NCBI GenBank assembly: GCA_903873905.1
Contig: CAIQQJ010000131.1
Span: forward strand, 22,729 to 86,728
DNA: 64,000 nucleotides
Source: an uncultured Flavobacteriales bacterium
GTDB taxonomy: Bacteria; Bacteroidota; Bacteroidia; Palsa-965
Direction of reading: 5' to 3'
Under the pieces are notes generated by a model. It was not told where the DNA came from, did no database searches, and was given only the letters and a program-made list of their open reading frames with translations. The position numbers and the translations under genes are program-made. Every line of letters begins with the position of its first letter. Positions within the stretch are counted from its first letter, which is position 1. Shown here piece by piece: positions 8,794 to 39,671 of this stretch.

Positions 8794-8797
8794 AGCC

Positions 8798-12142: not shown

Positions 12143-12294
12143 AAAATACCATCCACTCCAATGTCAGCTAAGGTCGTTATATATGTTAGCGAGAGATATG
12201 ATATAAATCATGTTTGCTGCTCCTAAATATTGTGAAATTTGAGAAAAAGATACCTCTAAAATTTGAATTTTTGAAGCGGTTCGAAAAAAAATAA

Positions 12295-13539
12295 GTGAAA
12301 GAAAAAACCAAAGTAGAATTACTTGCCCCATGTGGATCATTTGAATCGCTTTCAGCAGCTGTGAAAGTCGGGGCGAATGCTGTTTATTTTGGAATTGAAC
12401 AGTTGAATATGCGCACCCGTTCATCGAACAATTTTGAGATGAAAGATCTTGCAGCGATCAGTAAAATTTGCAAAGAACATCAGGTAAAATCATATCTCAC
12501 ACTCAACACCATTCTCTACAATCACGACATCAATCTGATGAAAAGAATTGTGGATGAAGCAAAGGCAAATAATATTGATGCGATCATCGCTTCAGATCAT
12601 GCGGTTTTCAACTATGCGAAGAAAGTTGGAATTCCATTGCACATTTCCACTCAGGCAAACATTACGAATATCGATACGGTTGAATTTTATTCTACGTATG
12701 CAGATGTAATGGTCATGTCGCGTGAACTGACACTTGATCAGGTTTCGGAAATCACAGAAGAAATAAAAAAGAGAAATGTTCGCGGGCCTTCTGGAGAATT
12801 GGTTCGTGTTGAAATTTTTGCACATGGAGCTTTGTGCATGGCCGTTTCCGGAAAATGCTACATGAGTTTGCATTCCGATTTTGCTTCTGCCAATCGTGGT
12901 GCTTGTGTTCAAAATTGCAGAAGAAGTTATATCGTTACCGACAAAGAATCGGGAACTGAATTTGAAATTCAGAACGAATATATCATGTCAGCGAAAGATC
13001 TTTGTACGATCAGTTTCATTGACAAAATTGTCAATGCAGGAGTTTCTGTTTTGAAAATTGAAGGACGAGCACGTGGTGAAGAATATGTTCACACCGTTAC
13101 CAAATGTTATCACGAAGCAATTGATTCGCTTTCTGATGGAACTTATTCTCCAGCAAAAATTGAAGGTTGGACAAAAGAACTTTCCACTGTATTTAATCGC
13201 GGATTCTGGGATGGTTATTACCTCGGAAGAAAAATGGGAGAATGGAATGATGAATATGGTTCCAAGGCAACAAAAAAGAAAATCTATATTGGAAAAGGCA
13301 TAAAATATTTTGAGAAAATTGGAATTGGTGAATTCAAAATTGAAAGTCAATCCTTGGAAGTTGGCGATGAAATAATGATTTCAGGACCTACAACAGGAAT
13401 CATTCAGACAGCCATAACAGAAATGAGAATCAATGATGTGAAAAGTGAAATTGCAAAACGTGGTGAAACCATTTCCATTCCTATCAACGTTAAAATTCGT
13501 GCTTCCGATAAATTATACAAGATGAAAAGTACAGTATGA
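12295..13539 (+). CDS. peptidase U32-family protein (PrtC/RlhA/TrhP/UbiU-like; probably an Fe-S, O2-independent hydroxylase-type enzyme)
   Basis: 414-aa ORF. U32 N-terminal TIM-barrel region (ELLAPCGSFESLSAAVKVGANAVYFG) and conserved Cys (CMAVSGKCYMS...CVQNCRRSY). Confidence 0.8.
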   Translation: MKEKTKVELLAPCGSFESLSAAVKVGANAVYFGIEQLNMRTRSSNNFEMKDLAAISKICKEHQVKSYLTLNTILYNHDINLMKRIVDEAKANNIDAIIASDHAVFNYAKKVGIPLHISTQANITNIDTVEFYSTYADVMVMSRELTLDQVSEITEEIKKRNVRGPSGELVRVEIFAHGALCMAVSGKCYMSLHSDFASANRGACVQNCRRSYIVTDKESGTEFEIQNEYIMSAKDLCTISFIDKIVNAGVSVLKIEGRARGEEYVHTVTKCYHEAIDSLSDGTYSPAKIEGWTKELSTVFNRGFWDGYYLGRKMGEWNDEYGSKATKKKIYIGKGIKYFEKIGIGEFKIESQSLEVGDEIMISGPTTGIIQTAITEMRINDVKSEIAKRGETISIPINVKIRASDKLYKMKSTV

Positions 13540-13766
13540 TTCGGATTTTTCATCAGCGCAAAAAATGCATTGGTTGTAATGCATGTGTGGAAGTAAATAA
13601 ATCAAGATGGAGAATATCACGTTTGGATGGGAAATCAACTTTGATTGAAGGAATAGAAAAAAAAGGAATTTACATGGCAACTGTTTTTGATGATGAATGG
13701 GAAGCCAATGAACTCGCAGCGAAAAATTGTCCAGTAAAAATCATCCGATTGGAAAAAATAGTATGA
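13536..13766 (+). CDS. small ferredoxin (single-cluster Fe-S protein)
   Basis: 76-aa ORF. CIGCNACVE ... NCP motif (CxxCxxC...CP). Start overlaps the U32 stop (ATGA). Stop overlaps the likely start of the downstream Mo enzyme. Confidence 0.6.
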   Translation: MIRIFHQRKKCIGCNACVEVNKSRWRISRLDGKSTLIEGIEKKGIYMATVFDDEWEANELAAKNCPVKIIRLEKIV

Positions 13767-16561: not shown

Positions 16562-17496
16562 TGGTTTCCGAAAAAATTTATGTAAAACCAAAATCTGTTG
16601 AGCAAGCTATAAAAATAGCGAGTCAATACCTTGGTTCATTTCGATACCTCGCAGGTGGAACCGATGTGATCGTGAATAAATATCAGGGAAATGAAGAAGC
16701 GAATTGTTTGATCGATATCACGGAGATCGAAGAATTGAAAAAAGTTTCCATCGATGGTGATTATTTGAAAATTGGATCATTGATAAAATTAGACGATCTG
16801 AAAAAACACGAATCCATTGTCAAATACATTCCCACATTAATTCAAGCGGCTCACGAAGTGGCTTCACCCATATTACGCAAAACGGCTACTATCGGTGGAA
16901 ATATTTTGTGTGAAAACAGATGTTCCTTTTACAATCAAAGTGAATGGTGGAGAGAAGCTGTAGGATATTGTTTGAAATGTGATGGGGAAATCTGCATTGC
17001 AACTGGCGGTAAGAAAAATTGTTTTTCAAAATTTGTTTCCGACACAGCACCTGTGCTCATCGCTTTGAATGCAAGGCTCGAAATTATCGATACCAATGGG
17101 GAATCTACCATTGCGCTTGAAGATATTTATTCAGGCGACGGGATGAATCCAAGAAAGCTAAGTGCAACAGCGTTGATCCGAAATATTCAGATTCCCATTG
17201 GTGAAAAACAGATTTGCATTTTCAAAAAACTCCGTCCACGTGAAGCGGTTGATTTTACATCGCTCACGACAGCTGTTTCACAAAGTGAAATTGGAAGAGT
17301 AAGAATTGTTCTCGGCGGAGTGGATCCTAAACCAATTGTTGTAGAGGGAAAAACAACAGATGATAAAAATGCATTGATCACTTCTGCTGTAAAAAAAGCT
17401 AGAATTGTCGACAATGATGTTTATTCACGTCAATACAGAAAAGAAATGATTTCGGTTTACCTACAAAGAAGTTTCGATGAATTGAAATGGGAATAG
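16561..17496 (+). CDS. FAD-binding subunit of a xanthine dehydrogenase-family enzyme (CoxM/HcrB-like) with a Cys-rich insertion
   Basis: 311-aa ORF. YLAGGTDV and TIGGN FAD-domain motifs. Start overlaps the Mo-subunit stop (ATGG/TAATGG). Six-Cys insert at residues 117-154. Confidence 0.8.
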   Translation: MVSEKIYVKPKSVEQAIKIASQYLGSFRYLAGGTDVIVNKYQGNEEANCLIDITEIEELKKVSIDGDYLKIGSLIKLDDLKKHESIVKYIPTLIQAAHEVASPILRKTATIGGNILCENRCSFYNQSEWWREAVGYCLKCDGEICIATGGKKNCFSKFVSDTAPVLIALNARLEIIDTNGESTIALEDIYSGDGMNPRKLSATALIRNIQIPIGEKQICIFKKLRPREAVDFTSLTTAVSQSEIGRVRIVLGGVDPKPIVVEGKTTDDKNALITSAVKKARIVDNDVYSRQYRKEMISVYLQRSFDELKWE

Positions 17497-20038: not shown

Positions 20039-20731
20039 TTAAATCCCTTTGGGACATAAACCCAACACTTCCTTTTTATTCCAAGAAGAACACCCAGGGA
20101 ACTTGCTGCATGTTGCGTAAATATCGCAGCTACTTTTTACGCGACTTACTTTCTTGTAGGTAGCTGCAGGAGTAAGATCAAATTTTATCCCTTGCTGTTT
20201 CAAAATGCGTTTCGCATTCCAAACTGAATACGCCACCACTACAATGAAAACAGAAAAAAATATGTACAAGTACAGCAATGGATTTTCAAAAAGCATTGCG
20301 TGTGTTTTGGGCGTGTTTGATTGGGCAATTACAGGAGGAACAGCAAGTTTTGCTTTTTCCTTTTCTGCTGCCACGGCAAGACCTGTATTGGTAATGTAGC
20401 TAAACACTGCTTTCATTTCAGGTTCCGTAAGTTTCTGATCCGGCATTGGAATTTTGAATTGATCAAACAATGCTTTTGCATCTGCATCCCCGCTTGCAAT
20501 GAAAGTGGTAGAACTTTTCACCCATTTCAAAAGCCATGCTTCAGGTCGTTTTGTTGTTACTCCTGAAAGATCTGGCCCGACCAAGCGACCTTTTCCTATT
20601 GTGTGGCAGGATCCACAATTATTTTTGAAAGTGGCTTCACCATCCTGAGCAATACCTGAAAACGGAAAAAGAAACAATAAAGCGATCACAAATGCAACAA
20701 CGTTTTTAGTCAACTTTTTTGAAAAACTCAT
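20039..20731 (-). CDS. membrane-anchored mono-heme c-type cytochrome
   Basis: 230-aa ORF. Signal peptide. CGSCH heme-binding motif. A C-terminal TM helix and a Cys-rich tail. Confidence 0.7.
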   Translation of the reverse strand: MSFSKKLTKNVVAFVIALLFLFPFSGIAQDGEATFKNNCGSCHTIGKGRLVGPDLSGVTTKRPEAWLLKWVKSSTTFIASGDADAKALFDQFKIPMPDQKLTEPEMKAVFSYITNTGLAVAAEKEKAKLAVPPVIAQSNTPKTHAMLFENPLLYLYIFFSVFIVVVAYSVWNAKRILKQQGIKFDLTPAATYKKVSRVKSSCDIYATCSKFPGCSSWNKKEVLGLCPKGI

Positions 20732-20851
20732 TTTGTTTTTTTTTGAATTGTTTTTGGAAAAACTTGAATTTATTTTTTGTGAATCTTAATTATCACCCTA
20801 ACAAATTTCAAAATATGATTTATATCAAACAATGATTCGCCTCATGCTTTT

Positions 20852-20865
20852 ATGATTTAAATCAT
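20852..20865. promoter_or_regulatory. FNR/Crp-type box ATGATTTAAATCAT (TGAT-N4-ATCA core)
   Basis: Perfect 14-bp palindrome, 127 bp upstream of the minus-strand cytochrome c start and 320 bp upstream of the narK-like gene. Confidence 0.6.
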
Positions 20866-21186
20866 TTTCTAAGCTTTACTTGCCCTTGTAAGCCCTACTA
20901 ACGTTAGCATTTCCGTTTCACAGGAAAATCAAAAAAACATTCGAATTCATTTTTTCATATTTGACAAAATAAAAATGTCCCGTTTGGTATAATTGTTTCA
21001 TCCTATCTGATGTTTTTTTCCAAAAAATGGAATTGAAAAAATCTTTGAATTGGATATCAAAACAAAAACAAATTCACAAATTTCATTTTGTTCAAAATTC
21101 CTTTTCGTTTAAAAACACAACATGCCTTCTGTCATACTTTTTCTAGCTTAGGCTTATAGCTTTGTCCTATCATTCAACTCAGCACT

Positions 21187-22671
21187 ATGGAAGTTATTGT
21201 AAGTGGTAAGTCACATCGGATGCTTTTTCTGAATACACTTGCATTTACAGTTTGTTTTGCTGTTTGGTTGTTCAATGGTGTAATGGTTACTTTCCTCGTT
21301 GACAAAGGAGTTTTTAATTGGGGACCAGTTGAAATTGGTTGGCTACTCGGAATTCCCATTCTTACAGGTTCCATTTTTCGTTTGCCGATGGGAATGCTCA
21401 CGGATAAATTTGGCGGAAAATGGGTGTTCGGAATTCTGCTTTTATTTTGTTCGATACCAATGTATTTCTTAGGAAGTGCAAATAGTTTTTGGCAATTCGC
21501 ATTGTTGAGTTTTGGTTATGGAATGGCGGGCACTGCATTTGCCGTTGGAATCGCTTTCACTTCCGTTTGGTATCCAAGAAAATGGCAAGGAACTGCGCTT
21601 GGAATTTTCGGTGCTGGAAATGCAGGAGCTGCCATTACCACTTTGCTTGCTCCAACAATTTTAGCCAAGCTTACGCATAACGGAATTGATATTGACCAAT
21701 GGCGAACACTTCCCAAAATTTACGCCGTGGCATTGCTAAGCATGGCAATTATTTTTCTCCTTTTCGCTGTAAATAAAAAGCCTGAAAATCAGGGGAAAAA
21801 TTTCAAGCAAATGCTCTTGCCTTTAAAAAGCGTTCGCGTTTGGAGATTTGGCTTAGACTACTTTTTAGTGTTCGGATGTTTCGTCGCATTTTCACAATGG
21901 CTCGTTCCTTATTTTGTAAATGTTTATGAAGCCTCACTTGTAACTGCCGGACTCTTCGCCTCCATTTTCAGTTTACCTTCTGGCTTGATTCGTGCCCTGG
22001 GAGGATTTCTGTCCGACAAAATGGGCGCAAGAAGAGTGATGCGAATTGTTTTTATTACGACAATAGCAATCAGCGCACTATTGATAATTCCAAAAATGGA
22101 AATTCAATCGCCAGGAAAAGGAATTCAGGCTGCCAAGAGTGGAACAATAACTTTTTCTTCCGACTCTTTAATCAGGGTCGGCACAAAAGATTATCAGCTT
22201 GAACAAATAAAAACAACTTCAGATAATTTTGAAAAAACATTTTCGATACTTCCTGCAAAGGATAGTTGGCAAACACCCGTGGTAAAAGTTGGTGATAGCG
22301 TAATTAAAAAACAACTTCTTGCTGAAGGCACAACAAGAATTCATTTCCAGGCTAACATGTGGGTTTATGCAATTCTTGTAATGTTCATTGGGATTGCATG
22401 GGGAATTGGAAAAGCTGGAGTTTATAAATTCATTCCTGATTATTTTCCAAATGATATTGGTGTGGTGGGTGGAATGGTTGGTGTTATTGGAGGATTGGGT
22501 GGATTCTTCTGCCCTATCATATTCGGATATTTATTGGAATGGACTGGATTATGGACAAGCTGCTGGATGTTCATTCTATTTCTCGCTCTAATTTGTTTCA
22601 TTTGGAAGAAGCGCGTGGTAAGATCAATTGATCAGGATATTGATCCAATTGTGGTGGATGACATCGATTAG
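21187..22671 (+). CDS. MFS transporter, nitrate/nitrite porter (NarK/NasA)-like
   Basis: 494-aa ORF with 12 predicted TMs and a central hydrophilic insert. GIFGAGNAGAA resembles the NNP-family signature. Confidence 0.55.
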   Translation: MEVIVSGKSHRMLFLNTLAFTVCFAVWLFNGVMVTFLVDKGVFNWGPVEIGWLLGIPILTGSIFRLPMGMLTDKFGGKWVFGILLLFCSIPMYFLGSANSFWQFALLSFGYGMAGTAFAVGIAFTSVWYPRKWQGTALGIFGAGNAGAAITTLLAPTILAKLTHNGIDIDQWRTLPKIYAVALLSMAIIFLLFAVNKKPENQGKNFKQMLLPLKSVRVWRFGLDYFLVFGCFVAFSQWLVPYFVNVYEASLVTAGLFASIFSLPSGLIRALGGFLSDKMGARRVMRIVFITTIAISALLIIPKMEIQSPGKGIQAAKSGTITFSSDSLIRVGTKDYQLEQIKTTSDNFEKTFSILPAKDSWQTPVVKVGDSVIKKQLLAEGTTRIHFQANMWVYAILVMFIGIAWGIGKAGVYKFIPDYFPNDIGVVGGMVGVIGGLGGFFCPIIFGYLLEWTGLWTSCWMFILFLALICFIWKKRVVRSIDQDIDPIVVDDID

Positions 22672-22759
22672 AATAATGGATTTTTTACCTGCAATTTTCA
22701 AGTAGAAAATCTAAAAACCCAAAACAATTTTCGAATTTTCAAAACATGACCATGGTCAC

Positions 22760-22771
22760 TGATTTAAATCA
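22760..22771. promoter_or_regulatory. FNR/Crp-type box TGATTTAAATCA
   Basis: Same palindrome as at 20852 and 33222. Lies in the intergenic region between the narK-like gene and the FeS-subunit gene. Confidence 0.55.
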
Positions 22772-23000
22772 TATTTATGGATAATTCGCGTCATTTATTA
22801 AAAACCCAAAGTGTGTCATTTTTGAATTGACATAAACGTTGATTACGTCAATAAAAAAGCCAATTCTAGTCCGTTTTTCAAAACTTGTCATTGATTATAA
22901 TTTTTACACAGTTTGACAATCTTTGAGTTTTCTGGCCTCCGTTCTTTCAATCCATCATCCTATAAGTAAATTCACCTTTTCCACTCCAAAAGCTTTCCAC

Positions 23001-23090
23001 AAAAATGATTTACATCACTGAGTAAAATCATAATCCCGTCTGATTCGAGTCATAGTTTGAAAATAATAATGTAGGGAAATTTGGTCCGTT
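23001..23090 (+). promoter_or_regulatory. conserved about 90-nt promoter/leader element, copy A
   Basis: Roughly 75-80% identical to 29987-30076: ATGAT.TA.ATCACTGAG.A.AATCAT.ATC.CGTCTG...GAaTCATAGTTTGAAAAT.AT.AT..GT.GGAAATTTG.T.CGGTT. Confidence 0.6.
23006..23017. promoter_or_regulatory. FNR/Crp-type box TGATTTACATCA at the head of conserved leader element A
   Basis: TGAT-N4-ATCA, followed about 35 nt later by CATAGTTTG (Bacteroidota -7-like TAnnTTTG motif). 213 bp upstream of the FeS-subunit gene. Confidence 0.55.
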
Positions 23091-23229
23091 GATGCCGCTC
23101 AAGTGAAAATCCAATCAAAACTCTACAGTCTTTAACAAATCGAATTCAATATTTACGCTCATTAATTATCGCAATTCCATCACCGCATAAAATCAATAAC
23201 GTTTCTACCGAAAAGTAATATTTCTAATT

Positions 23230-24204
23230 ATGGAAGATCAAAACAAAAACAATGAAGACAACAAAACTCCTGAATCGAATGAGTCAGGCAGACGCGACTT
23301 CCTGAAATTTGGAGTGCTTGCGGCTGGGCTAACTGTAGCAGGTGTTGGTCTTCAGAAAGTTTTTTCTGGCGAAAAGAATTCCGACGAAAAAGCTTCTGGT
23401 GAGAAAGTGAAAGTCCTCACCACAGATGGAAAACTCATTGAAGTATATGCTGCGGATGTCAAAAAAGCCGATGCATGTTGTGTTCCTTCAGCGGAAGCGC
23501 GTCAAGGAATACCAGGGAAGAAATTTGTAATGGTGATCGATTTATCACGTTGCAAAGACGCTTTGAAATGTCAAAAATCTTGTGAAAAACATCACCAACT
23601 TCCTGAACAGGATAAATGGTTGAAGGTTTTCAAAATGCAAGAATCAGAAGAAACAGCTCCTTACTGGATGCCAAAACCATGTTTCCATTGTGACCACCCA
23701 CCTTGTGTTAAAGTTTGTCCTGTTGATGCAACTTTTAAAAGAACAGATGGAATAGTTTTAGTTGACAATGAACGTTGCATCGGTTGCAGATTCTGCATGG
23801 CAGCTTGTCCATATTCTGCCCGTGTATTTAACTGGTCAGAACCTGTAACTCCAGCTAGACATGAAAATGACACCTATTCTCCAGAAACAAGCACCCCAAG
23901 AAAAAAAGGTACTGTTGAGAAATGTGACTTCTGTCCAGATGTAATTAGACAAGGTAAACTTCCACATTGCGTTACTGCTTGTCCAAATGGTGTTTATTAT
24001 TTCGGTGATCAAAATGAGGACACCGTTACCAATGGAGACACAACAGTTCGCTTAAGCCAATTGCTAAGAGACAAAGCTGGTTACAGATATTTGGAATCTC
24101 TTGGAACCGAACCTAGCGTTTATTATCTCCCTGCTGCCAATCGAATATTCCCATTCAAAGACAGGGAAATTAAAGATGAAAAGAAGGAAGAATCCAAAAG
24201 CTAA
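23230..24204 (+). CDS. Tat-exported 4x[4Fe-4S] ferredoxin-type subunit (NrfC/PsrB/NosG-like)
   Basis: 324-aa ORF. RRDFLKFG twin-arginine signal. Four Cys clusters (CFHCDHPPCVKVCP, CIGCRFCMAACPY, CDFC...CVTACP, plus one atypical first cluster). Confidence 0.8.
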   Translation: MEDQNKNNEDNKTPESNESGRRDFLKFGVLAAGLTVAGVGLQKVFSGEKNSDEKASGEKVKVLTTDGKLIEVYAADVKKADACCVPSAEARQGIPGKKFVMVIDLSRCKDALKCQKSCEKHHQLPEQDKWLKVFKMQESEETAPYWMPKPCFHCDHPPCVKVCPVDATFKRTDGIVLVDNERCIGCRFCMAACPYSARVFNWSEPVTPARHENDTYSPETSTPRKKGTVEKCDFCPDVIRQGKLPHCVTACPNGVYYFGDQNEDTVTNGDTTVRLSQLLRDKAGYRYLESLGTEPSVYYLPAANRIFPFKDREIKDEKKEESKS

Positions 24205-24259
24205 GGGATTAAGCTGAAGAAAAATTAATTGTCAATTAATAAATGAATAGCTCACAAAT

Positions 24260-25639
24260 ATGAAAGACATAATAAAACCAAAAGATGACGCTGAAGCAAT
24301 ACAAATGTTGCATCAGTTTAACGAGGACTTGCTGCCAAAGAAATTTGGTAAGATTGGTGTGACTTGGACCATATTTCTTTGCCTTGTAATTGCAAATGGA
24401 CTTTTTTGTTATTACAAACAATTAAAATTTGGATTGAGTGTAACTGGTTTGGGAGATCAAGTTTCCTGGGGTATTTACATTTCCAATTTCGTTTTTTTCG
24501 TAGCGGTAAGTTTAGTTGGTTCCTTGATCACAGCTGTACTTTATTTGCTTAATGTAAATTGGCGATCACCATTAACGAGGATTGCAGAAGTAATTGCAGT
24601 GGCTTGTATCGTTTTCGCTGGCCTCATTATCATTGTTGATATGGGTCGTCCTGATCGAATTCTAAATATGTTTATTTATGGTAGAATTCAGTCGCCAATT
24701 GTTTGGGATGTAATAGTTGTAATGACTTATATGACAATAAGCGTTTTACTTCTTTATTTTCCTTTACTTCCTGGAATTGCTTTTTGCAGAGACCATCTCA
24801 AAAATATTCCTAAATGGCAAAAGTGGATGTATAAGTTTCTATCGTTTGGATGGAAATGGAATCCTGAACAATTCAAAATTGTAAAAAGGGCAATTACAAT
24901 TTTATCCGTTCTTATTATTCCTGTTGCGCTTAGTATTCACACCGTTACTTCCTGGTTGTTTGCTACAACATTCCGTCCGGGTTGGGATAGTACAAATTTT
25001 GGAGCCTACTTTGTTGCAGGTGCGTTTATGGTAGGAGCAGGTGCGGTAATTGCAGCCATGTATGTCCTCATAAAATTCTACCCACGTTACGATCAGTATA
25101 TCACAGATAAACATTTTGATCGTATGGGGAAACTTCTTGTACTTCTATCCTTGGTCTATATGTATTTTACCGTTAATGAATACATGATTCCCGGTTATAA
25201 AATGAAGGGTGAAGAAGCTGCCCATCTTACAGAATTATTTGTTGGAAAATATGCGCTAATGTTTTGGTCAGTTCAAATTTTCGGAATGATCATTCCTATT
25301 ATTCTTCTTATGTTCAAAAAATTCAGACGCCCTTTCCCAATGTTTGTCATTGCGATTTGTGTAATTGTTGGAGCGTGGTTTAAACGATTCCTTATTGTTA
25401 TTCCAACATTGCTTCACCCTTTCCTACCAATGCAGGAAATATCTGAATCAGCGAAATCTTATTCTCCAACCTATCCAGAGTGGTCCATCACCTTTGCTTC
25501 ATTGGCTGGCGCATTATTGATAATCACTGTCTTTATCCGCTATTTCCCTATTATTTCAATTTGGGAAGTTGCTGAAGAAAGAGGAATTGAACACGATGTT
25601 ATTTATAAACACTTAAACGAATTAAACGAAAAAGAATGA
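24260..25639 (+). CDS. NrfD/PsrC-family polytopic membrane quinol-interacting subunit
   Basis: 459-aa ORF with about 10 TM helices and an NrfD-like profile. Directly downstream of the FeS subunit. Confidence 0.8.
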   Translation: MKDIIKPKDDAEAIQMLHQFNEDLLPKKFGKIGVTWTIFLCLVIANGLFCYYKQLKFGLSVTGLGDQVSWGIYISNFVFFVAVSLVGSLITAVLYLLNVNWRSPLTRIAEVIAVACIVFAGLIIIVDMGRPDRILNMFIYGRIQSPIVWDVIVVMTYMTISVLLLYFPLLPGIAFCRDHLKNIPKWQKWMYKFLSFGWKWNPEQFKIVKRAITILSVLIIPVALSIHTVTSWLFATTFRPGWDSTNFGAYFVAGAFMVGAGAVIAAMYVLIKFYPRYDQYITDKHFDRMGKLLVLLSLVYMYFTVNEYMIPGYKMKGEEAAHLTELFVGKYALMFWSVQIFGMIIPIILLMFKKFRRPFPMFVIAICVIVGAWFKRFLIVIPTLLHPFLPMQEISESAKSYSPTYPEWSITFASLAGALLIITVFIRYFPIISIWEVAEERGIEHDVIYKHLNELNEKE

Positions 25640-26580
25640 AAAACTATCTAACATTTCAGATGCGGATATCTTCCCTTTTTTATTCGGCATTATCTTTGTT
25701 ATTCATTGGTGTATTCGTGCTAATGAGTAATAATGTAATGGCTCAAGACAAAAAGGATACGACCAAAATGTCTATTTCCATGAACGTGAGTTATAAAATT
25801 TCAGATGGAATAAAACACGTGAAAGTTCAAGCTACGCGAAAAGAAAATAAAAAAAATGTTTCCGTAGATAATGCAACTTCCCCTGTGTCTTTATACCTGA
25901 ATGAAGTAAAAGCTACAGATCCTTCAACTGGAGACGGACTTATCAGCAAACTTTTTCTTAATGAAGAAGGAGAAGTAACCTTTGATCTCCCTGCTAATTT
26001 TAATTCGCTCACATCTGGGTTACATGAATACACTTTCATTGCCCGTATGGAAGCAGATCCAATTTATCAAGAAGCAGAAGAACAAATTACCATTGCAGAT
26101 GCAAAAATCACTGTTGAATATTCCGGCAAGGATTCCATTAAAACGGCTACTGCTACACTAATGGAATGGAAAGACAGTGCGTACGTGCCTGTTCGTGATG
26201 CTGAATTGAAACTTTTCATTAAAAGAACATTCAGTTTATATCCTATTGGCGAAGAAGGAATTACTTCTGATTCACTCGGGCAAATAACATCGGAACTTCC
26301 TTTGGATATTCCTGGTGAGGCTGATGGCACAATAATTATTGTCGGCAGTGTGATCGATCATGAAACCTACGGAACTGTTGAAACAACAAATAAAGTGAAA
26401 TGGGCTGTTCTTCCAAAAGTCAATGCTGACATGGGTCGTACGCTTTGGTCTACAGGAAAAAATGCTCCTGTTCCATTAATTATTGCTTCTTGCACGATTA
26501 TTGCAATCATTTGGGGAACGATTATTTATCTAATTTTACAGCTGTTTAAAATCAGAAAAATCGGAAAACAAAAAGTGTAG
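25636..26580 (+). CDS. hypothetical periplasmic protein with N-terminal signal/anchor and C-terminal TM helix
   Basis: 314-aa ORF. Start overlaps the NrfD stop (ATGA), so translationally coupled. No cofactor motif recognised. Confidence 0.5.
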   Translation: MKNYLTFQMRISSLFYSALSLLFIGVFVLMSNNVMAQDKKDTTKMSISMNVSYKISDGIKHVKVQATRKENKKNVSVDNATSPVSLYLNEVKATDPSTGDGLISKLFLNEEGEVTFDLPANFNSLTSGLHEYTFIARMEADPIYQEAEEQITIADAKITVEYSGKDSIKTATATLMEWKDSAYVPVRDAELKLFIKRTFSLYPIGEEGITSDSLGQITSELPLDIPGEADGTIIIVGSVIDHETYGTVETTNKVKWAVLPKVNADMGRTLWSTGKNAPVPLIIASCTIIAIIWGTIIYLILQLFKIRKIGKQKV

Positions 26581-26617
26581 TAAACAATTTAACCATCAAA
26601 CTAAAAAAAACAAAATC

Positions 26618-27058
26618 ATGAAATCAAATCAAAAATCCGCAAATTTCGCCGCAATTACATCAGTTATTATTCTGTTTGCATTTGTTGGAATGTTAAGCAT
26701 GTCATTCGTTACCATTTCTACTACTGGTGATAAAAAACCATGGGTAGTTCCTGATAAAGATAAGGCAGTGAAAAACCCTGTTGCTTCCGATGCAACATCT
26801 ATTGCAGCTGGAAAAACTTTGTACACAAAACTTTGCAAATCATGTCATGGTGCTACTGGAAAAGGTGATGGTCCAAAATCAAAAGAATTGGAAACACCAA
26901 CAGGAAGCTTTCTGGATGCAACTTTTACTGCACAAACAGATGGAGAAGTTTTCTTCAAAGTAAGAAAAGGCAGAGATGATATGCCTGGTTTCTCTAAAGA
27001 AACAGAAGCTAATGATGTTTGGAATATCATTAACTATGTTCGCTCATTGAAAAAATAA
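26618..27058 (+). CDS. membrane-anchored class I c-type cytochrome (c6/c553-like)
   Basis: 146-aa ORF. N-terminal TM. CKSCHG heme motif. Distal Met region (DDMPGF). Confidence 0.75.
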   Translation: MKSNQKSANFAAITSVIILFAFVGMLSMSFVTISTTGDKKPWVVPDKDKAVKNPVASDATSIAAGKTLYTKLCKSCHGATGKGDGPKSKELETPTGSFLDATFTAQTDGEVFFKVRKGRDDMPGFSKETEANDVWNIINYVRSLKK

Positions 27059-27130
27059 TATTCTTGACTATTTTCCGAAGTGGAAAAATTAGGGAATAAT
27101 TAATTAAAGATTTTTTAACAAACGCTATAT

Positions 27131-28051
27131 ATGAAACTATCATTCTTTAATAGCACATTTAATGCAGCAAAAACATTTTTTGTTTTTGCTGCATTTGTGG
27201 CTACAACCGGTGTCGTACGTGCACAGGACGATTCAACCGCAACAGGCCCAGAACCTGTAACAAGAACTTTTCGCGGTCCTCAATTAATCAATATGCCTAC
27301 GAATGAAATCGTAGATGGTCTGACATTCGGAATTCAACACCGTTTCGGTCAGGTAATTGATAAGGACATTGCGTATGAGTTTTTGGGAATGGATCTTACA
27401 GCAAACATGCGTTTTTCACTTGGCTACCCTATCATTAAGGAAAGATTGATGGTCGAGCTAGGAAGAACCAAATTTGGAAAGAATATGGATCTAGAGGTAA
27501 AATGGCTTGCATTGAGACAGACAACAAAAAATGAAATGCCTATTTCCCTTACGATTTATGTGGATCCATCTTTATCGATGACAAGATTCCCAAAAGTTCC
27601 GAATTATGCATATTTTGGTGATAGCACCACAGTATTTAAATATACTGCTGCTTCTCGAATGGCATATAATTCTCAAATCATTATTTCAAGGAAGTTCAGC
27701 AAGAAATTCTCCTGCGAATTAGCTCCAACTTTTATTTACAGAAATTTGGTAGAGTCTTCAACTATTGATCATTATACAATGGCTTTGCAAGCTGGTGCAC
27801 GTTACAAGTTTTCAAGAGCTGGTTCTATTATGGTAGAATATGGTCATGCATTCAACAACAGAGACACCGCGACCGCCACTAAAACGGTTGATCCTCTTTC
27901 AATAGGAGTTGAATTCGGAACTGTAGCGCACGTATTTCAGATTGTAATGAGCTCTTCCAACAATCTTCTTGCTAGAGACATTTATACAACGAATGGTGTT
28001 GCTTATACCAAAGGACTTTTTGTAGGCTTCAATTTGAAACGTTTCTTTTAA
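27131..28051 (+). CDS. hypothetical outer-membrane beta-barrel protein
   Basis: 306-aa ORF. Signal peptide ending VRAQDD. Alternating amphipathic strands. C-terminal ...LKRFF, typical of OMP barrels. Confidence 0.45.
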   Translation: MKLSFFNSTFNAAKTFFVFAAFVATTGVVRAQDDSTATGPEPVTRTFRGPQLINMPTNEIVDGLTFGIQHRFGQVIDKDIAYEFLGMDLTANMRFSLGYPIIKERLMVELGRTKFGKNMDLEVKWLALRQTTKNEMPISLTIYVDPSLSMTRFPKVPNYAYFGDSTTVFKYTAASRMAYNSQIIISRKFSKKFSCELAPTFIYRNLVESSTIDHYTMALQAGARYKFSRAGSIMVEYGHAFNNRDTATATKTVDPLSIGVEFGTVAHVFQIVMSSSNNLLARDIYTTNGVAYTKGLFVGFNLKRFF

Positions 28052-28114
28052 CCACTAATAAATTCGAATCAATTCGAATTTGTCAATGAAAAAGAACCAA
28101 CTGAATAATGACTA

Positions 28115-28576
28115 ATGAAAATGAATCTCACTATGAAAAAATTAACTTTTAGCCCTATAAAGCTCATTTCTGGAATGACCGTGATCCTTGGATTATTGTT
28201 TGTTAGCTCCTGTAAAAAAGATGTTGGGCCAATTATCATACCTCCTGCAAATGCTCCTCCAGTGAGTTTTGCCTCTGAAATTCAACCAATCTTTACCACA
28301 AATTGTGCTGTAGGTGGTTGTCACGATGGTTCTGCATATGACCCAAATCTATCAGCTGGAGTAGCTTATGTTAATACTGTGAATGTTCCTGCTCCTTCTT
28401 ACGCTCCTTATTTTTTGATAAGACCAAGCAAGGCTGACAGCTCCGTTATTTATCATAAAATGTTGAACGATGATGCAGGTACTTATGGTGGCAAAATGCC
28501 TCCTGCTGGTGTTTTACCAGCAACTCAACTTGATCTATTGAAAACCTGGATCAACCAAGGTGCATTGAATAATTAA
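28115..28576 (+). CDS. lipoprotein with a Cys-X4-Cys-His motif (putative cytochrome-c-like / metal-binding domain)
   Basis: 153-aa ORF. Lipobox LFVSSC. IQPIFTTNCAVGGCHDG resembles planctomycete-cytochrome-C-type domains but with CX4CH spacing. Confidence 0.5.
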   Translation: MKMNLTMKKLTFSPIKLISGMTVILGLLFVSSCKKDVGPIIIPPANAPPVSFASEIQPIFTTNCAVGGCHDGSAYDPNLSAGVAYVNTVNVPAPSYAPYFLIRPSKADSSVIYHKMLNDDAGTYGGKMPPAGVLPATQLDLLKTWINQGALNN

Positions 28577-28584
28577 TTGCCTTC

Positions 28585-28626
28585 ACTACAACATTGATTT
28601 TTTTAATTAAAAATCAATGTTGTAGT
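28585..28626 (+). terminator. long perfect hairpin downstream of the CX4CH lipoprotein gene
   Basis: ACTACAACATTGATTTTT-TTAATT-AAAAATCAATGTTGTAGT: 18-bp perfect arms and no clear U-tract. Could be a terminator or an RNA-processing / regulatory structure. Confidence 0.5.
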
Positions 28627-28713
28627 ATAACACAACTATTTTTGTACCGTTCAGTGATAAATCAAAGTTTGTTTCAAAATTGAAAAAATAAATAAAAACT
28701 AAAAACTAAAAAC

Positions 28714-29490
28714 ATGAGAAAAATTACACTCTTTGCTATTTCGAGTATTATTTTGGTTGTGGCTATGTCCAGTAGCGCTGGAAAAGCTGGTAAGACAGGT
28801 TCTCCAGGTGAAAGCACCTGTATGGGATGCCATGGTGACTTTCCAATAAATACAGGTGGAGGAACTATTGCGATTACCTCTAATATCCCTGGCTCTTATA
28901 TTGCTGGAACCACCTATACAGTCAGCGTTACAGTAAGCCAAACTGCAATGCCTTTGTTTGGTTTCGATTTCGAGGCACTCAATTCGGCAAATGCCAATGC
29001 TGGTACCCTTGCTGCTGGTAGCGACTCGCATATTATGATATCAGGCGGAAAAAATAACATGGTCCATTTGACAGATGGTGGTCTAACCACCGGTACTCAT
29101 ACTTTCACCTTCAACTGGACAGCTCCAAGTGCAGGTGCTGGAACAGTTACATTCTATGCTTCCGGAATTTGTGCAGATAATAGTGGAGATGAAACGGGTG
29201 ACTATGTGCATACTACATCAGTGGCTATTCCTGAAAACCCATTGAGTGTTGCTCAAAATTCTTCTGAGCCAACGCTTAATGTTTACCCAACTGTTTCTAA
29301 CGGAACTTTCACAATTCAGAATAATGTAAATTATGATTTGTCAATTTACAACGTTACTGGAGAAGAAGTTTTCGCAAAAACTGTTGATGCTAATCTTGAA
29401 ACAGTGAATCTGAATGTACCAACAGGAATGTATTTTGTGTACATCAAATCAGAAAACAAAACAACATTGAAGAAAATCATTGTTCAGTAA
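28714..29490 (+). CDS. T9SS-secreted surface protein with N-terminal CxxCH-containing domain and Por_Secre_tail C-terminal sorting domain
   Basis: 258-aa ORF. Signal peptide. CMGCHG motif. C-terminal roughly 75 aa (LNVYPTVSNGTFTI...MYFVYIKSENKTTLKKIIVQ) match the T9SS CTD pattern. Confidence 0.75.
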   Translation: MRKITLFAISSIILVVAMSSSAGKAGKTGSPGESTCMGCHGDFPINTGGGTIAITSNIPGSYIAGTTYTVSVTVSQTAMPLFGFDFEALNSANANAGTLAAGSDSHIMISGGKNNMVHLTDGGLTTGTHTFTFNWTAPSAGAGTVTFYASGICADNSGDETGDYVHTTSVAIPENPLSVAQNSSEPTLNVYPTVSNGTFTIQNNVNYDLSIYNVTGEEVFAKTVDANLETVNLNVPTGMYFVYIKSENKTTLKKIIVQ

Positions 29491-29626
29491 TTCTAAATCT
29501 TCGGTAGGATTAATAAACTATTAAATTATTAAGCAGCCGAGTGCAAAATAAATTCATTAGCATTTAGCGCAAAAAGCTTCTTGCCAAATGAAAACTTAAG
29601 AAGTGCTGATTTAAAAATCAAAAAAA

Positions 29627-29658
29627 AGATTCCGGGGTTTCCGGAATCTTTTTTTTTG
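29627..29658. terminator. rho-independent terminator
   Basis: AGATTCCGG-GGTTT-CCGGAATCT stem plus TTTTTTTTT, with an upstream A-run (bidirectional potential). Confidence 0.7.
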
Positions 29659-29986: not shown

Positions 29987-30076
29987 CAGTATGATCTATA
30001 TCACTGAGAACAATCATGATCTCGTCTGTACTGAATCATAGTTTGAAAATGATTATCAGTGGAAATTTGTTTCGGT
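29987..30076 (+). promoter_or_regulatory. conserved about 90-nt promoter/leader element, copy B
   Basis: Paralogue of 23001-23090. Directly upstream of the 940-aa T9SS/SprB-repeat protein gene. Confidence 0.6.
29992..30003. promoter_or_regulatory. FNR/Crp-type box TGATCTATATCA at the head of conserved leader element B
   Basis: TGAT-N4-ATCA, followed about 36 nt later by CATAGTTTG. 134 bp upstream of the 940-aa T9SS protein gene. Confidence 0.55.
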
Positions 30077-30136: not shown

Positions 30137-32959
30137 ATGAAAAAATTAATCGTTGCATCTACAGCTTTTGCAGCTCTTCTGCTGATAGCTTTCGGCTCAA
30201 TGACTCAACAAGCTGATGCGAGAAGTAAAAAAACACCTCCCTCTGGCTATTCTGGCGGTCCTGGAGATGGCCCTGGTGGCAGAACATGTTGGACCGGCTG
30301 TCACAACAACTACAGTCAAGCCTTCAACAAACCTGGTTGGATCACTTCTGATATTCCCGTTACAGGATATGTACCAGGAGCAACTTACAACATCACCATT
30401 CACAGCAATTCTAAAGGATACAGACACGGTTTTGAGGCAAGTTGCCAAACCAATGCTGGTGTATTCCAAGGAACATTAATTGGCAACGATTCCACTCAGG
30501 TAATTGTTGACCCTACTGTTACTAGCAAACAATGGATTGCACAAATGGATTCCATGCGCGCTTTGTCTATGGTACCTCCAGTTTCAACCAGTCTTGGTTA
30601 TCATGGTAATGGAAATGCTTCAGTTACTTTCAACACCAAAGCATGGACATTTAAGTGGGTTGCTCCATCAGCAGGAACAGGCGATGTTACTTTCTACATG
30701 GCGACTGTAGCAACCAACAACAATAATGACGACCATGCAGCTCCTTACCAACAAACATCTTGGGCTGGTGATTCCGTGTTTAGTTCAACTCTTCCTCTCT
30801 TTGAAAATACAACATTAAGCATCGGAAGTGTTACAAAACCATGTAATGGAAATAACGGTTCTGCAACTGTAAATGCTACTTATGGAACTGCACCATATAC
30901 CTATTCTTGGAATTCATCACCTGTGCAAACAACACAAACAGCAACCAACCTTGGAGCTGGAACTTATACAGTTGTTGTAACAGACGCATTGTCATCCGTT
31001 AAAACATTGACTTTTACATTACAAAACAAGATAAAAGCAATTATCAACGACCAAAACATTCCAGTATGTAATAATGGAACAATCACCCATACAGTAGTTC
31101 CAATTGGAACAGGTCCTTTCACTTATTTGTGGGCACCTTCTGGTGGAACAGCTGCTATTTCAACAGCTTTGGCTGCTGGTACATATTCAGTAACAGTAAC
31201 AGATGCGGCTACTTGCGCAACTACATTAACAGTTACCACAACAAACAACCCTCCAATGCACATTTGGTTTTTCGATTGGCAGGACAGTGCTGTAACACGC
31301 AATGGTGGTGCAAATGGTTATGCTAAAATACAACGTGAGTTTGCTCCAAGTGGATCAGTTTACACTTATGCATGGAATCCAGCAATTGGTATTCAAGGAC
31401 AATTCCAAGATAGTTTGACTGCACAAACCTACACTTGCACAGTAACAAACACCCATTCTGTTTGTCCAACACAGGTTGTTGCAGCTACAGTTACAATTAC
31501 ACAACCAACTGTACTTACTGCATCTGTTACTGCTTCAAACAATGGATGCAATAGCGCGAATAGCGGTTCTGCAACAGTCACTGCTGCTGGAGGAACTCCA
31601 CCTTACACTTATCTATGGAGTAATGGTCAAACTTCAGCTACAGCAACAGGTTTAGCTCCTGGAACGTATACTTGTACCATTACACACAGAGGTGTTTATG
31701 CAACATCACAAGATGTACCTGCACTACAACGTGCGGTTTCTGCTGTCGGTTCTTGGTCTATTACTAAAACTGTAACTATTTCTGCTCTTTCTGCAAGTAT
31801 TGCTCCTCCAACAAATCCAACATGTTTTGGTGGAACAGGAAGCGCTACTGTAACTCCAGTAGGCGGAACAGCACCATACACTTACTTGTGGAGTCCTTCA
31901 GGCGGAACAGCTGCAACAGCAACTGGTCTAGCTGCAGGTTCTTACACTTGTACAATCACTGATGCAAATGGATGTGTTGTTTCTGCAAACAGAACTTTGG
32001 TTCAACCAGGAGCACTTCTTGGATCTGCATCAACAGTTAGTCCTTTATGCAATGGAGACAACAACGGATCTGCAACAGTTGTTGCAGGTGGCGGAACTCC
32101 AACATACACTTACCTATGGGCACCTTCAGGAGCAACAACCGCAACTTCAAGCGGACTTGTAGCAGGTTCTTACACTTGCACAATCACTGATGCTTACGGA
32201 TGTACAACAGCTGTAAATACAACTGTGGCTGAACCAGGAGTTCTTGTTGGATCAGGATCAACTGTTAGTCCTTTATGTAATGGTGGAAATGGAACTGCAA
32301 CAGTTTATGCTGGTGGCGGAAATCCTTTGTACACTTACCTATGGGCACCTTCAGGCGGAACAGCTGCAACAACAACTGCAGTTCCTGCAGCAACATACAC
32401 TTGCACAATCACTGATGCAAACGGCTGTACAACTACTGTAAGCAATACAATCAATGAGCCTGCAGCTTTGACAACATTAATGGGAACTACAAGTGAGTAT
32501 TTCGCAGCTAATGGAACTGCAACAGCATATCCTTCAGGTGGAACAGCTCCATATTCATTCTTATGGGCTCCAACAGGTGGAACTGCACAAGTTGCATCAG
32601 GTCTTGTTGCCGGAACATACTCTGTAACAGTTACAGACGTAAATGGTTGCACAGTTACTAATTCAGTAGTTGTTACTTCTGTTGTTGGTGTATCTTCAAT
32701 TGATGCAGACAACTCTATCAATGTATTCCCAAATCCAAACTCTGGTGAATTTGATATGGTTTTGAATGCTACTGAAAATACCAATTACACAATTGTACTT
32801 ACAAACGTACTTGGACAAGTTGTTTACACTGAAACGCTTGAAAACTTCAGCGGAAACTACACCAAACACTTTGATGTAAATTCAAATGGTAAAGGTGTTT
32901 ATCTGATGAGCGTACGCAGTGCAAATCATCAAGTTGTTCGCAAGATTGTTGTTTACTAG
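30137..32959 (+). CDS. large T9SS-secreted adhesin-like protein: N-terminal CX3CH domain, about 8 SprB-type repeats, and Por_Secre_tail CTD
   Basis: 940-aa ORF. Signal peptide. CWTGCH motif. The N-domain is homologous to that of the 28714..29490 product (shared ...W(T/V)APSAG(A/T)G(T/D)VTFY...). Repeats GGT.PYTYLW.PSGGT...GL.AG.YTCTITDANGC. CTD ...VFPNPNSGEF...KIVVY. Confidence 0.85.
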   Translation: MKKLIVASTAFAALLLIAFGSMTQQADARSKKTPPSGYSGGPGDGPGGRTCWTGCHNNYSQAFNKPGWITSDIPVTGYVPGATYNITIHSNSKGYRHGFEASCQTNAGVFQGTLIGNDSTQVIVDPTVTSKQWIAQMDSMRALSMVPPVSTSLGYHGNGNASVTFNTKAWTFKWVAPSAGTGDVTFYMATVATNNNNDDHAAPYQQTSWAGDSVFSSTLPLFENTTLSIGSVTKPCNGNNGSATVNATYGTAPYTYSWNSSPVQTTQTATNLGAGTYTVVVTDALSSVKTLTFTLQNKIKAIINDQNIPVCNNGTITHTVVPIGTGPFTYLWAPSGGTAAISTALAAGTYSVTVTDAATCATTLTVTTTNNPPMHIWFFDWQDSAVTRNGGANGYAKIQREFAPSGSVYTYAWNPAIGIQGQFQDSLTAQTYTCTVTNTHSVCPTQVVAATVTITQPTVLTASVTASNNGCNSANSGSATVTAAGGTPPYTYLWSNGQTSATATGLAPGTYTCTITHRGVYATSQDVPALQRAVSAVGSWSITKTVTISALSASIAPPTNPTCFGGTGSATVTPVGGTAPYTYLWSPSGGTAATATGLAAGSYTCTITDANGCVVSANRTLVQPGALLGSASTVSPLCNGDNNGSATVVAGGGTPTYTYLWAPSGATTATSSGLVAGSYTCTITDAYGCTTAVNTTVAEPGVLVGSGSTVSPLCNGGNGTATVYAGGGNPLYTYLWAPSGGTAATTTAVPAATYTCTITDANGCTTTVSNTINEPAALTTLMGTTSEYFAANGTATAYPSGGTAPYSFLWAPTGGTAQVASGLVAGTYSVTVTDVNGCTVTNSVVVTSVVGVSSIDADNSINVFPNPNSGEFDMVLNATENTNYTIVLTNVLGQVVYTETLENFSGNYTKHFDVNSNGKGVYLMSVRSANHQVVRKIVVY
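30842..32702 (+). repeat. in-frame array of about 8 SprB-type repeats (roughly 80-90 aa each) inside the 940-aa T9SS protein gene
   Basis: Recurring NG.NGSATV.A.GGT.PYTYLW.PSGGT.A...GL.AG.YTCTITDANGC at the protein level, with matching nucleotide periodicity. Confidence 0.75.
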
Positions 32960-34618: not shown

Positions 34619-34624
34619 GCATAA

Positions 34625-37041: not shown

Positions 37042-37049
37042 TCTTAATA

Positions 37050-38415: not shown

Positions 38416-38419
38416 CCTG

Positions 38420-39655: not shown

Positions 39656-39671
39656 TTCGAATCACTATTGC

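Follow-up and report, generated by a model that had tools for sequence, protein, structure and literature searches.

We combined profile searches, comparative genomics and structure prediction to examine a gene cluster in a 64,000-nt stretch of contig CAIQQJ010000131.1 from an uncultured Flavobacteriales bacterium. This stretch, hereafter called the window, had been described in a sequence-only reading as carrying a quinol:cytochrome c module built around an iron-sulfur (FeS) protein and an NrfD-type membrane subunit. We read 23230-29490 as a single seven-gene transcription unit, and its products probably move electrons between the quinone pool and a partner at or outside the cell surface. Outward flow is the direction that we favour, i.e., a Bacteroidota-specific, envelope-spanning chain leading from menaquinol to an extracellular or surface acceptor in anaerobic respiration, a reading to which we give about an even chance.

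In the proposed chain, an ActC/DsrP-like NrfD subunit would exchange electrons with menaquinone at a site on the periplasmic side and would pass them through an FeS subunit with four clusters, exported by twin-arginine translocation (Tat). A 314-aa anchored beta-sandwich protein would serve as a structural or docking subunit of this inner-membrane complex. From there, a soluble periplasmic monoheme cytochrome c would deliver the electrons to an outer-membrane unit, made of a DUF5777 barrel of about 12 strands and a FoxE/PccH-like monoheme lipoprotein cytochrome. The outermost carrier in this lineage would be a Reeler-like monoheme protein secreted by the type IX secretion system (T9SS), a role that DOMON/EB_dh heme, hexaheme or YceI-like lipoproteins may take elsewhere. 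Fe(III), Mn(IV) and humic quinones are the candidate terminal acceptors. Gene content, synteny, the fusion described below, family signatures and sorting signals are direct observations; complex formation, heme occupancy, the path over the outer membrane, the flow direction and the nature of the partner are inferred.

Conservation of the module and its outer-membrane neighbours

A scan of one genome per species found 61 loci in Chitinophagales, Sphingobacteriales and Flavobacteriales. The window proteins were mapped by phmmer onto all related loci, which comprise 64 non-redundant Bacteroidota loci (L numbers below), 30 of them well flanked (at least 3 kb on both flanks). Carriers include Lutibacter and the cultured Algibacter agarivorans, Gaetbulibacter aquiaggeris, Gaetbulibacter sp. 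M235 and Yeosuana aromativorans, and many are metagenome-assembled genomes (MAGs) from groundwater or aquifers.

The gene order is nearly universal: small lipoprotein, DUF5777, FeS, NrfD, homologue of the 314-aa protein, cytochrome c. Beside the module in the well-flanked loci, the periplasmic cytochrome c is present in all 30, the DUF5777 barrel in 27 and the lipoprotein cytochrome in 23, with a median barrel-to-module distance of 692 bp. The FeS-NrfD-X(-cytochrome) set is duplicated in tandem in 16 of the 30 relatives, and the window operon has a single NrfD gene. Together with the gene fusion described below, this synteny backs the adjacent barrel and the T9SS-exported CxnCH proteins among the candidate acceptors named earlier.

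Some Flavobacteriales loci carry further genes beside the cluster. A third module lies on the opposite strand in L051 (11181-13590) and also in L052, L066, L068 and L047 (Gaetbulibacter, Yeosuana and relatives), where genes for a 150-aa multiheme cytochrome of c3/c7-like type, a 258-aa FeS protein and a 398-aa NrfD protein are followed by hemA. Heme biosynthesis genes flank the cluster in L048 (16696-18060), L061 (12435-13529), L064 (11799-13115) and L043 (11303-12523). They encode uroporphyrinogen decarboxylase and glutamyl-tRNA reductase, together with a radical-SAM protein that may be HemN-like and a class-III aminotransferase that may be HemL.

Inner-membrane module

The FeS protein carries the Tat motif RRDFLKF at residues 21-27, and RRxF is found in 78 of 86 homologues. 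Fifteen cysteines, not 16, are invariant (85/85 homologues), and alignment to PsrB gives motif I as C-x2-A-x2-C-x3-C, with Ala in place of the second Cys. In place of the four [4Fe-4S] clusters first proposed for this protein, three [4Fe-4S] and one [3Fe-4S] are thus predicted, with the 3Fe cluster probably in motif I. By analogy with NarH-type subunits, the [3Fe-4S] cluster is predicted to lie at the membrane-distal end. All NCBIfam matches of the FeS protein are below the curated cut-offs, i.e., DsrO at 196.5 bits (cut-off 200), QrcC at 144 (400), NrfC at 126 (378) and also TtrB. Its best PDB matches are PsrB, ArrB and the C-terminus of ActB; only residues 99-299 align with ActB, to the C-terminal part of chains of 949-1039 aa. 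A separate observation concerns the 5' end of the module in L001 (4013-4225), L003 (3865-4086), L005 (4132-4383) and L070 (7397-7666), where an open reading frame (ORF) of 70-89 aa precedes the first FeS gene. Its product has a Tat signal followed by 'LTxDGKLVEV', which matches the N-terminal extension of the window FeS protein, and the ORF is either a product of gene splitting or a Tat hitch-hiking partner.

The NrfD protein is, judged by its sequence, a cofactor-less, quinone-interacting membrane subunit. Its best PDB matches are four ActC chains of alternative complex III (ACIII), with E-values from 6e-55 to 7e-43 (6lod_C 6e-55, 6btm_C 6e-51), and it aligns over its full length with the 10-helix ActC (6lod_C, 6btm_C, 8k9e_C and 6f0k_C); PsrC was not among its strong PDB matches. 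After mapping onto Rhodothermus ActC numbering, validated at 23/23 positions, 14 of the 23 ActC signature residues (>95% conserved in ActC) are seen to be kept, including the gate Arg395 (R376). The residues His139, Asp169 and Asp253 of the ActC quinol site are >95% conserved in 521 ActC sequences (PMC8076601). In our NrfD subunit D169 is kept as D150, H139 is replaced by D127 and D253 by L233, both invariant in 62 close homologues, and E394 is replaced by a Lys that is invariant in the family. The second NrfD copy of the tandem duplications has Cys at the ActC 139 position and Ile at 253. The quinone-site spacing Asp-x17-Ser-x4-Asp equals that of DsrP1 (D106, S124, D129) and is near that of QrcD (D120, S138, E142; Table 2 of PMC8076601), an equivalence drawn from spacing only. 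It agrees with the NCBIfam ranking of DsrO/DsrP followed by QrcC/QrcD, all below cut-off (for NrfD, DsrP 134.2 bits against 350 and QrcD 59 against 570).

The likeness to ACIII extends to a periplasmic four-cluster FeS partner, with one predicted [3Fe-4S] cluster, and to a monoheme cytochrome c encoded downstream. However, the window operon lacks the pentaheme ActA, the molybdopterin-like domain of ActB1, ActD and ActF, the incomplete FeS motif is I in the module but III in ActB, and the 314-aa subunit has no counterpart in ACIII. A grouping with ActB/ActC, raised in the sequence-only reading, is therefore borne out by NrfD, which is nearest to ActC, but not by its quinol-site residues or by the missing ACIII parts. 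The likeness to QrcCD and DsrOP consists of the best NCBIfam scores, the quinone-site spacing and the menaquinone-dependent organisms; on the other side, QrcA/B and DsrM/K/J partners are lacking (no DsrMKJ-like genes are present in the scanned window ORFs) and the taxon is another one. The FeS/NrfD/314-aa module thus appears to be a distinct clade of the ActC/DsrP/QrcD group and would be neither ACIII, Qrc nor Dsr.

The 314-aa protein belongs to an unnamed family of 96 homologues, Bacteroidota wherever labelled, and is identical to the hypothetical protein NT084_06140 of a 'Bacteroidetes bacterium' MAG. Its homologue directly follows NrfD in all 64 loci. It has no Cys and no Pfam or PDB sequence match, as the earlier description of a protein with no cofactor motif had it. 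Its anchoring can be specified further. An AlphaFold2 model (pLDDT 83) has two beta-sandwiches between a signal peptide and a C-terminal helix. Since the helix at the N-terminus resembles a signal peptide that is cleaved off (..VMA/QD), the mature protein would consist of two periplasmic beta-sandwiches and a single C-terminal anchor. A Foldseek comparison with the PDB returned just generic Ig-like, macroglobulin and transglutaminase beta-sandwiches at TM-scores <0.3, which are uninformative on function. We take this protein to be a structural or docking subunit.

Outer-membrane unit

Relatives of the periplasmic cytochrome have Sec signal peptides and no lipobox. A DUF5777 search found 107 relatives, Bacteroidota wherever labelled, and 11 of them (P0116-P0125 and P0128; 403-414 aa) are fusions of Cytochrom_C and DUF5777. 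The N-terminal part of P0116 is 34% identical to the window periplasmic cytochrome (E 3e-26) and its C-terminal part 38% identical to the window barrel (E 2e-49). In both fusion contexts examined, a gene for a protein of about 132 aa lies 3' of the fusion, and the L072 product is 39% identical to the 153-aa lipoprotein cytochrome of the window (4e-26). These contexts reproduce the window order at 26618-28576 (cytochrome, barrel, small protein). Because of this Rosetta-stone fusion and the same gene order, we infer a joint function for the cytochrome, the barrel and the lipoprotein cytochrome. Outer-membrane barrels have their termini in the periplasm, which would place the cytochrome of the fused protein at the periplasmic face.

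The outer-membrane unit is also found in other settings. Fused units occur without any quinone module beside them, and the trio, again without a quinone module, is present with YceI in a Flavobacterium. In L075 (5505-9360) the trio of cytochrome, DUF5777 and 141-aa protein directly follows a 661-aa NapH-like Fer4_5-TPR protein, giving the outer unit a partner of another type in the inner membrane.

The nearest folds of DUF5777 are 12-strand solute channels of the FapF/KdgM type, and its lumen register is polar with mixed charge. An anion-selective lumen was considered and rejected, since the lumen-register charges are balanced (7.3 basic vs 6.5 acidic). Two His residues are invariant ('IQHRFG' and 'GHVFQI'; H182 and H374 of P0116), and both face outward, in the hydrophobic register of strands 1 and 11, for which reason a bis-His heme within the barrel was also rejected. 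The pair might be a cofactor or partner-binding site.

In the 153-aa family, the lipobox C33 and the residues C64, C69 and H70 are invariant, the window copy reading C64-AVGG-C69-H70 (CAVGGCH). The putative heme motif has CX4CH spacing in 18 members and CX2CH in 15. Family members match PSCyt1 (8/35 members; 1.4e-7), PccH and class-I types including Cytochrome_CBB3 in Pfam; the window copy itself has no Pfam match. Against the PDB, the family profile matches FoxE (8e-9), the C-terminal heme domain of hydrazine synthase alpha (5e-7) and PccH (1.5e-4). The alignment with FoxE takes in the heme motif, the methionine of MPP and the WI..GA tail, and the pattern F-x2-D-I-x-P-I-F...C-x2-C-H...M-P-P...W-I-x-x-G-A is shared with both FoxE (Rhodobacter ferrooxidans) and PccH (Geobacter). 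Unlike FoxE, the 153-aa family has a single heme domain instead of two, is lipid-anchored and barrel-paired, and about half of its members have CX4CH. FoxE is a cytochrome that accepts electrons from Fe(II) in photoferrotrophs (PMC10654088).

Two known outer-membrane systems offer a comparison. The barrel of Cyc2 is predicted to have 16 strands. The architecture of an N-terminal monoheme cytochrome c fused to a barrel is common to Cyc2 and the fused relatives (adjacent separate genes in the window), whereas the DUF5777 barrel has about 12 strands, is FapF/KdgM-like and has an obligatory lipoprotein cytochrome partner. With MtrCAB the unit shares its logic and gene order (periplasmic cytochrome, barrel, lipoprotein cytochrome) but has monoheme instead of decaheme cytochromes and 12 instead of 26 strands. 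No sequence similarity to MtrCAB was found, save for a weak MtrC-domain match in flavobacterial hexaheme neighbours.

Surface components

The last gene of the operon codes for a 258-aa protein that matches choice_anch_V of NCBIfam at 8e-29 and carries a type A T9SS sorting domain at residues 190-258 (PF18962, Por_Secre_tail, 9e-10; TIGR04183, 4.5e-11). Its family comprises 39 relatives, almost all with a T9SS domain, and distant members have Reeler (PF02014). C36, C39 and H40 are invariant, within 'GSPGE..C..CH' at the mature N-terminus, and the gene is present in the five closest loci. One member of this family (L027, 4351-5163) reads 'GCTCH' where the others have CX2-4CH; either this is a degenerate site or the motif need not bind heme in every member.

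Other loci have other components in this place. EB_dh (DOMON-like) lipoproteins adjoin the module in 17 loci, with CX3CH in 17/18, and hexaheme lipoprotein cytochromes, the proteins with the MtrC-domain match, are found in 10 Flavobacteriales loci. A mixed lipoprotein cluster without heme motifs occurs in 16 loci, one of its members having a Pfam YceI domain, and YceI itself is present in L005, L007 and L074. Several of the outer lipoproteins have K-D-D-type residues after the lipid Cys, which resemble the Bacteroidota surface-export signal. The outer components thus swap between lineages, yet all are exported and most are redox proteins.

Operon limits and regulation

The six genes named in the sequence-only reading are all real (Table 1). 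The FeS, NrfD, 314-aa and cytochrome c genes belong together as proposed, whereas the cytochrome c and NarK-like genes upstream do not: both were rejected as module members since they have no homologue in any of the 64 related loci. Conversely, the conserved partners at 27131-29490 had been left out. Intergenic distances from the FeS gene to the gene of the 258-aa protein range from -4 to 137 bp, with the NrfD and 314-aa genes overlapping by 4 bp (ATGA) and read as translationally coupled. No terminator comparable to that at 29620-29656 was found within 23230-29490. These short gaps and overlaps, followed by a terminator with a 17-pair stem, are the basis on which we read the region as one operon. 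A sigma-70 promoter scan was uninformative (33 sites vs 41 expected), as Bacteroidota use other promoter motifs, and Rfam recognised only one tRNA in the window.

Table 1. Positions of the operon, its upstream neighbours and associated signals in the window (aa, amino acids; MFS, major facilitator superfamily)
Feature	Position	Strand	Evidence or remark
Cytochrome c	20039-20731	-	ORF listing and Pfam/NCBIfam scans
NarK-like MFS porter	21187-22671	+	ORF listing; TIGR00886 195.9 bits
CRP/FNR-type box TGATTTAAATCA	22760-22771	+	560-bp gap 5' of FeS gene
CRP/FNR-type box TGATTTACATCA	23006-23017	+	560-bp gap 5' of FeS gene
Tat-signal FeS subunit, 324 aa	23230-24204	+	Pfam Fer4_11
NrfD-family membrane subunit, 459 aa	24260-25639	+	Pfam NrfD 1.5e-34
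314-aa subunit	25636-26580	+	Bacteroidota-only family
Periplasmic class-I monoheme cytochrome c, 146 aa, CKSCH	26618-27058	+	Pfam Cytochrom_C 2.4e-11
Outer-membrane beta-barrel DUF5777, ~12 strands	27131-28051	+	
Lipoprotein monoheme cytochrome c, 153 aa, CX4CH	28115-28576	+	FoxE/PccH/PSCyt1 type, family profile
T9SS-exported Reeler-like 'choice-of-anchor V' protein, 258 aa, CMGCH	28714-29490	+	NCBIfam choice_anch_V
Intrinsic terminator, strong, bidirectional	29620-29656	both	17-pair stem then T-run

The window contains 12 TGAT-N4-ATCA boxes against 3.7 expected, a number reached in 0 of 100 shuffles, and 8 of the 12 are intergenic. Two are located 5' of the FeS gene, and two further ones lie between the divergent upstream cytochrome c and MFS genes. 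In the related loci, gaps 5' of cluster genes have 4.5 times the box density of the loci as a whole (0.43 vs 0.097/kb), and Crp/Fnr regulator genes adjoin the module in 10 of the 30 well-flanked loci. Thus, of the original description of an FNR-box-controlled module, the boxes stand and are enriched, and FNR-type control of the operon itself is plausible.

Direction of electron flow and competing explanations

No molybdenum bis-pyranopterin guanine dinucleotide (Mo-bisPGD), multiheme, copper or cd1 reductase was detected in the window by Pfam scans of almost all larger ORFs (all but those at 61989-62342 and 62524-63996), and the scanned ORFs encode no catalytic subunit of nosZ, nir, nrfA, nap, nar or psr type, in agreement with what had been read from the letters. 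The sole respiratory enzyme of the window is a NorB-like protein (40961-42292). In the related loci, neither precomputed Pfam annotation (about 10 loci) nor Pfam on recurrent neighbour clusters nor phmmer with the window genes (all 64 loci) revealed a nosZ, nrfA, nir or molybdoenzyme gene, singleton large ORFs beyond the annotated loci not all being scanned. A simple operon split, with nosZ or nrfA beside the module in relatives, was accordingly not seen among the scanned loci. The norCB genes had been named as a possible acceptor and were rejected as partner, as they are near no homologous cluster (0 norC/norB matches in the related loci).

Outward flow is favoured because one operon tightly joins the quinone module with the outer unit, because the carriers live as heterotrophs and because the probable control is of FNR type. 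SirCD of Shewanella and CbcSTU/Cbc4 of Geobacter are alike by composition, being two-subunit FeS/NrfD entry points that hand electrons to periplasmic cytochromes. SirCD and CbcSTU are FeS/NrfD quinol dehydrogenases feeding extracellular electron transfer (PMC11434368), and a similar role has been proposed for Melioribacter (PMC9386147). They differ in their multiheme cytochromes and MtrAB- or Omb/Omc-type porins, in contrast to the monohemes, 12-strand barrel and T9SS cargo described here.

Several points weigh against the outward chain. A 12-strand barrel is too narrow for a cytochrome domain, unlike MtrB or Cyc2, and two monohemes form no obvious bridge across the outer membrane. Heme binding at the CX4CH and CX3CH motifs and at one CXCH variant is an assumption. 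It is uncertain whether the lipoprotein cytochrome is exposed at the cell surface, the acidic residues that resemble an export signal being weak in this lineage. The barrel is absent from 3 of the 30 well-flanked loci, and the TGAT-N4-ATCA box is found in just 15 of 60 loci. Finally, the analogues of the outer part (FoxE, PccH and the Cyc2-style fusion) serve electron uptake or Fe(II) oxidation, i.e., the opposite direction, and the quinone-site spacing resembles that of QrcD, a quinone reductase.

These last points lead to the alternative of inward flow, in which electrons enter at the outer unit by oxidation of Fe(II), reduced humics or some other donor outside the cell and the cytochrome c feeds N-oxide reductases such as the nearby cytochrome c-dependent nitric oxide reductase (cNor). 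FeS/NrfD would then also feed menaquinone, in a Qrc-like manner if the donor is of low potential and otherwise driven by the proton-motive force. FoxE, an Fe(II) oxidase, and PccH as the best solved relatives of the 153-aa profile, the parallel of the cytochrome-barrel fusion with Cyc2 and the Asp-x17-Ser-x4-Asp spacing, as in DsrP1 and QrcD, are all consistent with this direction. So are the fused units that stand alone, the setting of the operon, an island of FNR boxes that also holds norCB-like genes and a NarK-like porter, and the many groundwater and aquifer MAGs among the carriers. However, reverse electron flow is nothing that the carriers, as heterotrophs, evidently need, electron transfer from Fe(II) to menaquinone is uphill, the outer unit is operon-coupled to the quinone module in 27/30 loci, and no nor, nir or nos gene was seen to adjoin the module in the related loci as far as these were scanned. 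We give inward flow a modest chance.

It is improbable that the module is a stripped-down ACIII, that is, an anaerobic menaquinol:cytochrome c oxidoreductase serving periplasmic reductases (cNor in this genome, Nir or Nos in others), with the barrel and lipoprotein as unrelated neighbours. Bacteroidota are not known to have bc1; among solved structures NrfD is nearest to ActC, whose gate Arg and channel residues it mostly retains (the Arg included), the next cytochrome gene is a monoheme one like that of ActE in ACIII, and norCB-like genes lie 11 kb away. But the adjacency of the barrel (27/30) and lipoprotein cytochrome (23/30) and the physical fusion of cytochrome and barrel in relatives speak against unrelated neighbours, two ActC quinol-site residues (His139 and Asp253) are replaced, and there are 0 nor matches in the 64 loci and no nir or nos wherever Pfam was applied.

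A third explanation starts from the barrel. Because a 12-strand barrel cannot house a cytochrome, DUF5777 could still be a small-solute channel (KdgM/NanC/COG4313 type), with the heme proteins acting on the transported solute. Examples would be reductive iron assimilation, like that of eukaryotic Reeler-DOMON-b561 ferric reductases, or shuttle/quinone turnover with YceI-like carriers. The nearest folds and the polar, mixed-charge lumen fit such a channel, as do the YceI-containing lipoprotein cluster as a recurrent neighbour, YceI in the three loci named above, the Reeler and DOMON-type domains of the outer components and a VIT1 iron transporter near one locus. On the other hand, a dedicated and often duplicated quinone module under FNR-type control suggests high flux, not assimilation, no conserved inner-membrane transporter for the solute is present, and the hexaheme lipoproteins of Flavobacteriales better fit electron conduction. 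We give this explanation a slim chance.

A split remnant of NrfABCD, NosGH-NosZ, PsrABC or DsrMKJOP with its catalytic partner elsewhere is suggested by NCBIfam matches to DsrO (196.5 bits), QrcC, TtrB, NrfC and DsrP (134 bits), but is very improbable given that every such match falls below its curated cut-off, that no catalytic subunit was seen beside the module in the scanned parts of 64 loci of several orders and that the module has its own conserved, family-specific partners.

Possible significance of an outward or inward chain

Sediments, aquifers, soils and marine particles are rich in Bacteroidota, which are treated as fermenters or as oxygen or nitrate respirers and are not known to have an assigned pathway of extracellular electron transfer. 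Our literature search on DUF5777, NrfD and extracellular electron transfer in Bacteroidetes, T9SS cytochromes and Lutibacter found no description of the cluster, nor is it listed in a review of the NrfD family (PMC8076601). The cluster may represent an undescribed route by which Bacteroidota exchange respiratory electrons with the outside. It would combine a menaquinone-linked ActC/DsrP-like complex that includes the new 314-aa subunit, a minimal outer-membrane unit whose way across the membrane differs from those of MtrCAB and Cyc2, and surface heme proteins exported by T9SS, a proposal that we make tentatively and with some doubt. For the outer-membrane part, a novel mode of action has a reasonable chance of being true.

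If the proposal is true, many sediment, groundwater and marine Bacteroidota would be unrecognised iron- or humic-respiring (or iron-oxidising) organisms, and the cassette would be a genetic marker for iron and humic redox cycling in this phylum. It would also add to the NrfD family a new complex, set apart by its quinone-site signature and by one additional subunit, widen the cargo range of T9SS to c-type cytochromes and pose the mechanistic puzzle of how electrons cross the outer membrane via a 12-strand barrel. Since the cassette is present in cultured strains (Algibacter agarivorans, Gaetbulibacter aquiaggeris and Yeosuana aromativorans), direct testing is possible.

Surrounding genes in the window

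Upstream of the operon, the cytochrome c at 20039-20731 has a signal peptide, a single heme domain, a predicted membrane helix at about residues 150-172 and a Cys-rich C-terminal tail (CDIYATC...GC...C). The NarK-like MFS protein scores below the TIGR00886 cut-off (311.7 bits) and has an insertion of about 80 aa (about residues 305-385) outside the TIGR00886 match; its glycine-rich motifs, recognised by eye, are presumably NarK-type signatures.

On the 3' side of the operon, a T9SS surface protein of 940 aa with SprB repeats is encoded at 30137-32959, with its own TGAT-N4-ATCA box (29992-30003) 145 bp upstream. A co-regulated adhesin is one possibility for this protein, and in L012, L013 and L027, too, the cluster has SprB-like proteins beside it. 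An NO-stress-like cluster follows at 33668-37529, coding for DUF2249-ScdA_N-hemerythrin, DUF1858-DUF2249, FeS-assembly and thioesterase proteins and a membrane protein of 429 aa whose sole match, to COX1, is weak (2e-07) and falls short of the cut-off. Three consecutive Crp/Fnr-family genes (37696-40450; one on the minus and two on the plus strand) lie directly 5' of the norC/norB-like genes (40431-42292), with a TGAT-N4-ATCA box at 39672. Like the two upstream genes, the norC, norB and NO-stress genes have no homologue in any of the 64 related loci.

The far 5' part of the window (186-17496) has genes for anaerobic metabolism of amino-acid type. It encodes two HGD-D dehydratase subunits with BcrAD/BadFG activators (2-hydroxyacyl-CoA dehydratase), and a xanthine-dehydrogenase-family molybdoenzyme comprising a 944-aa Fer2-MoCoBD protein and an FAD subunit, with the maturation genes MobA-like and XdhC.

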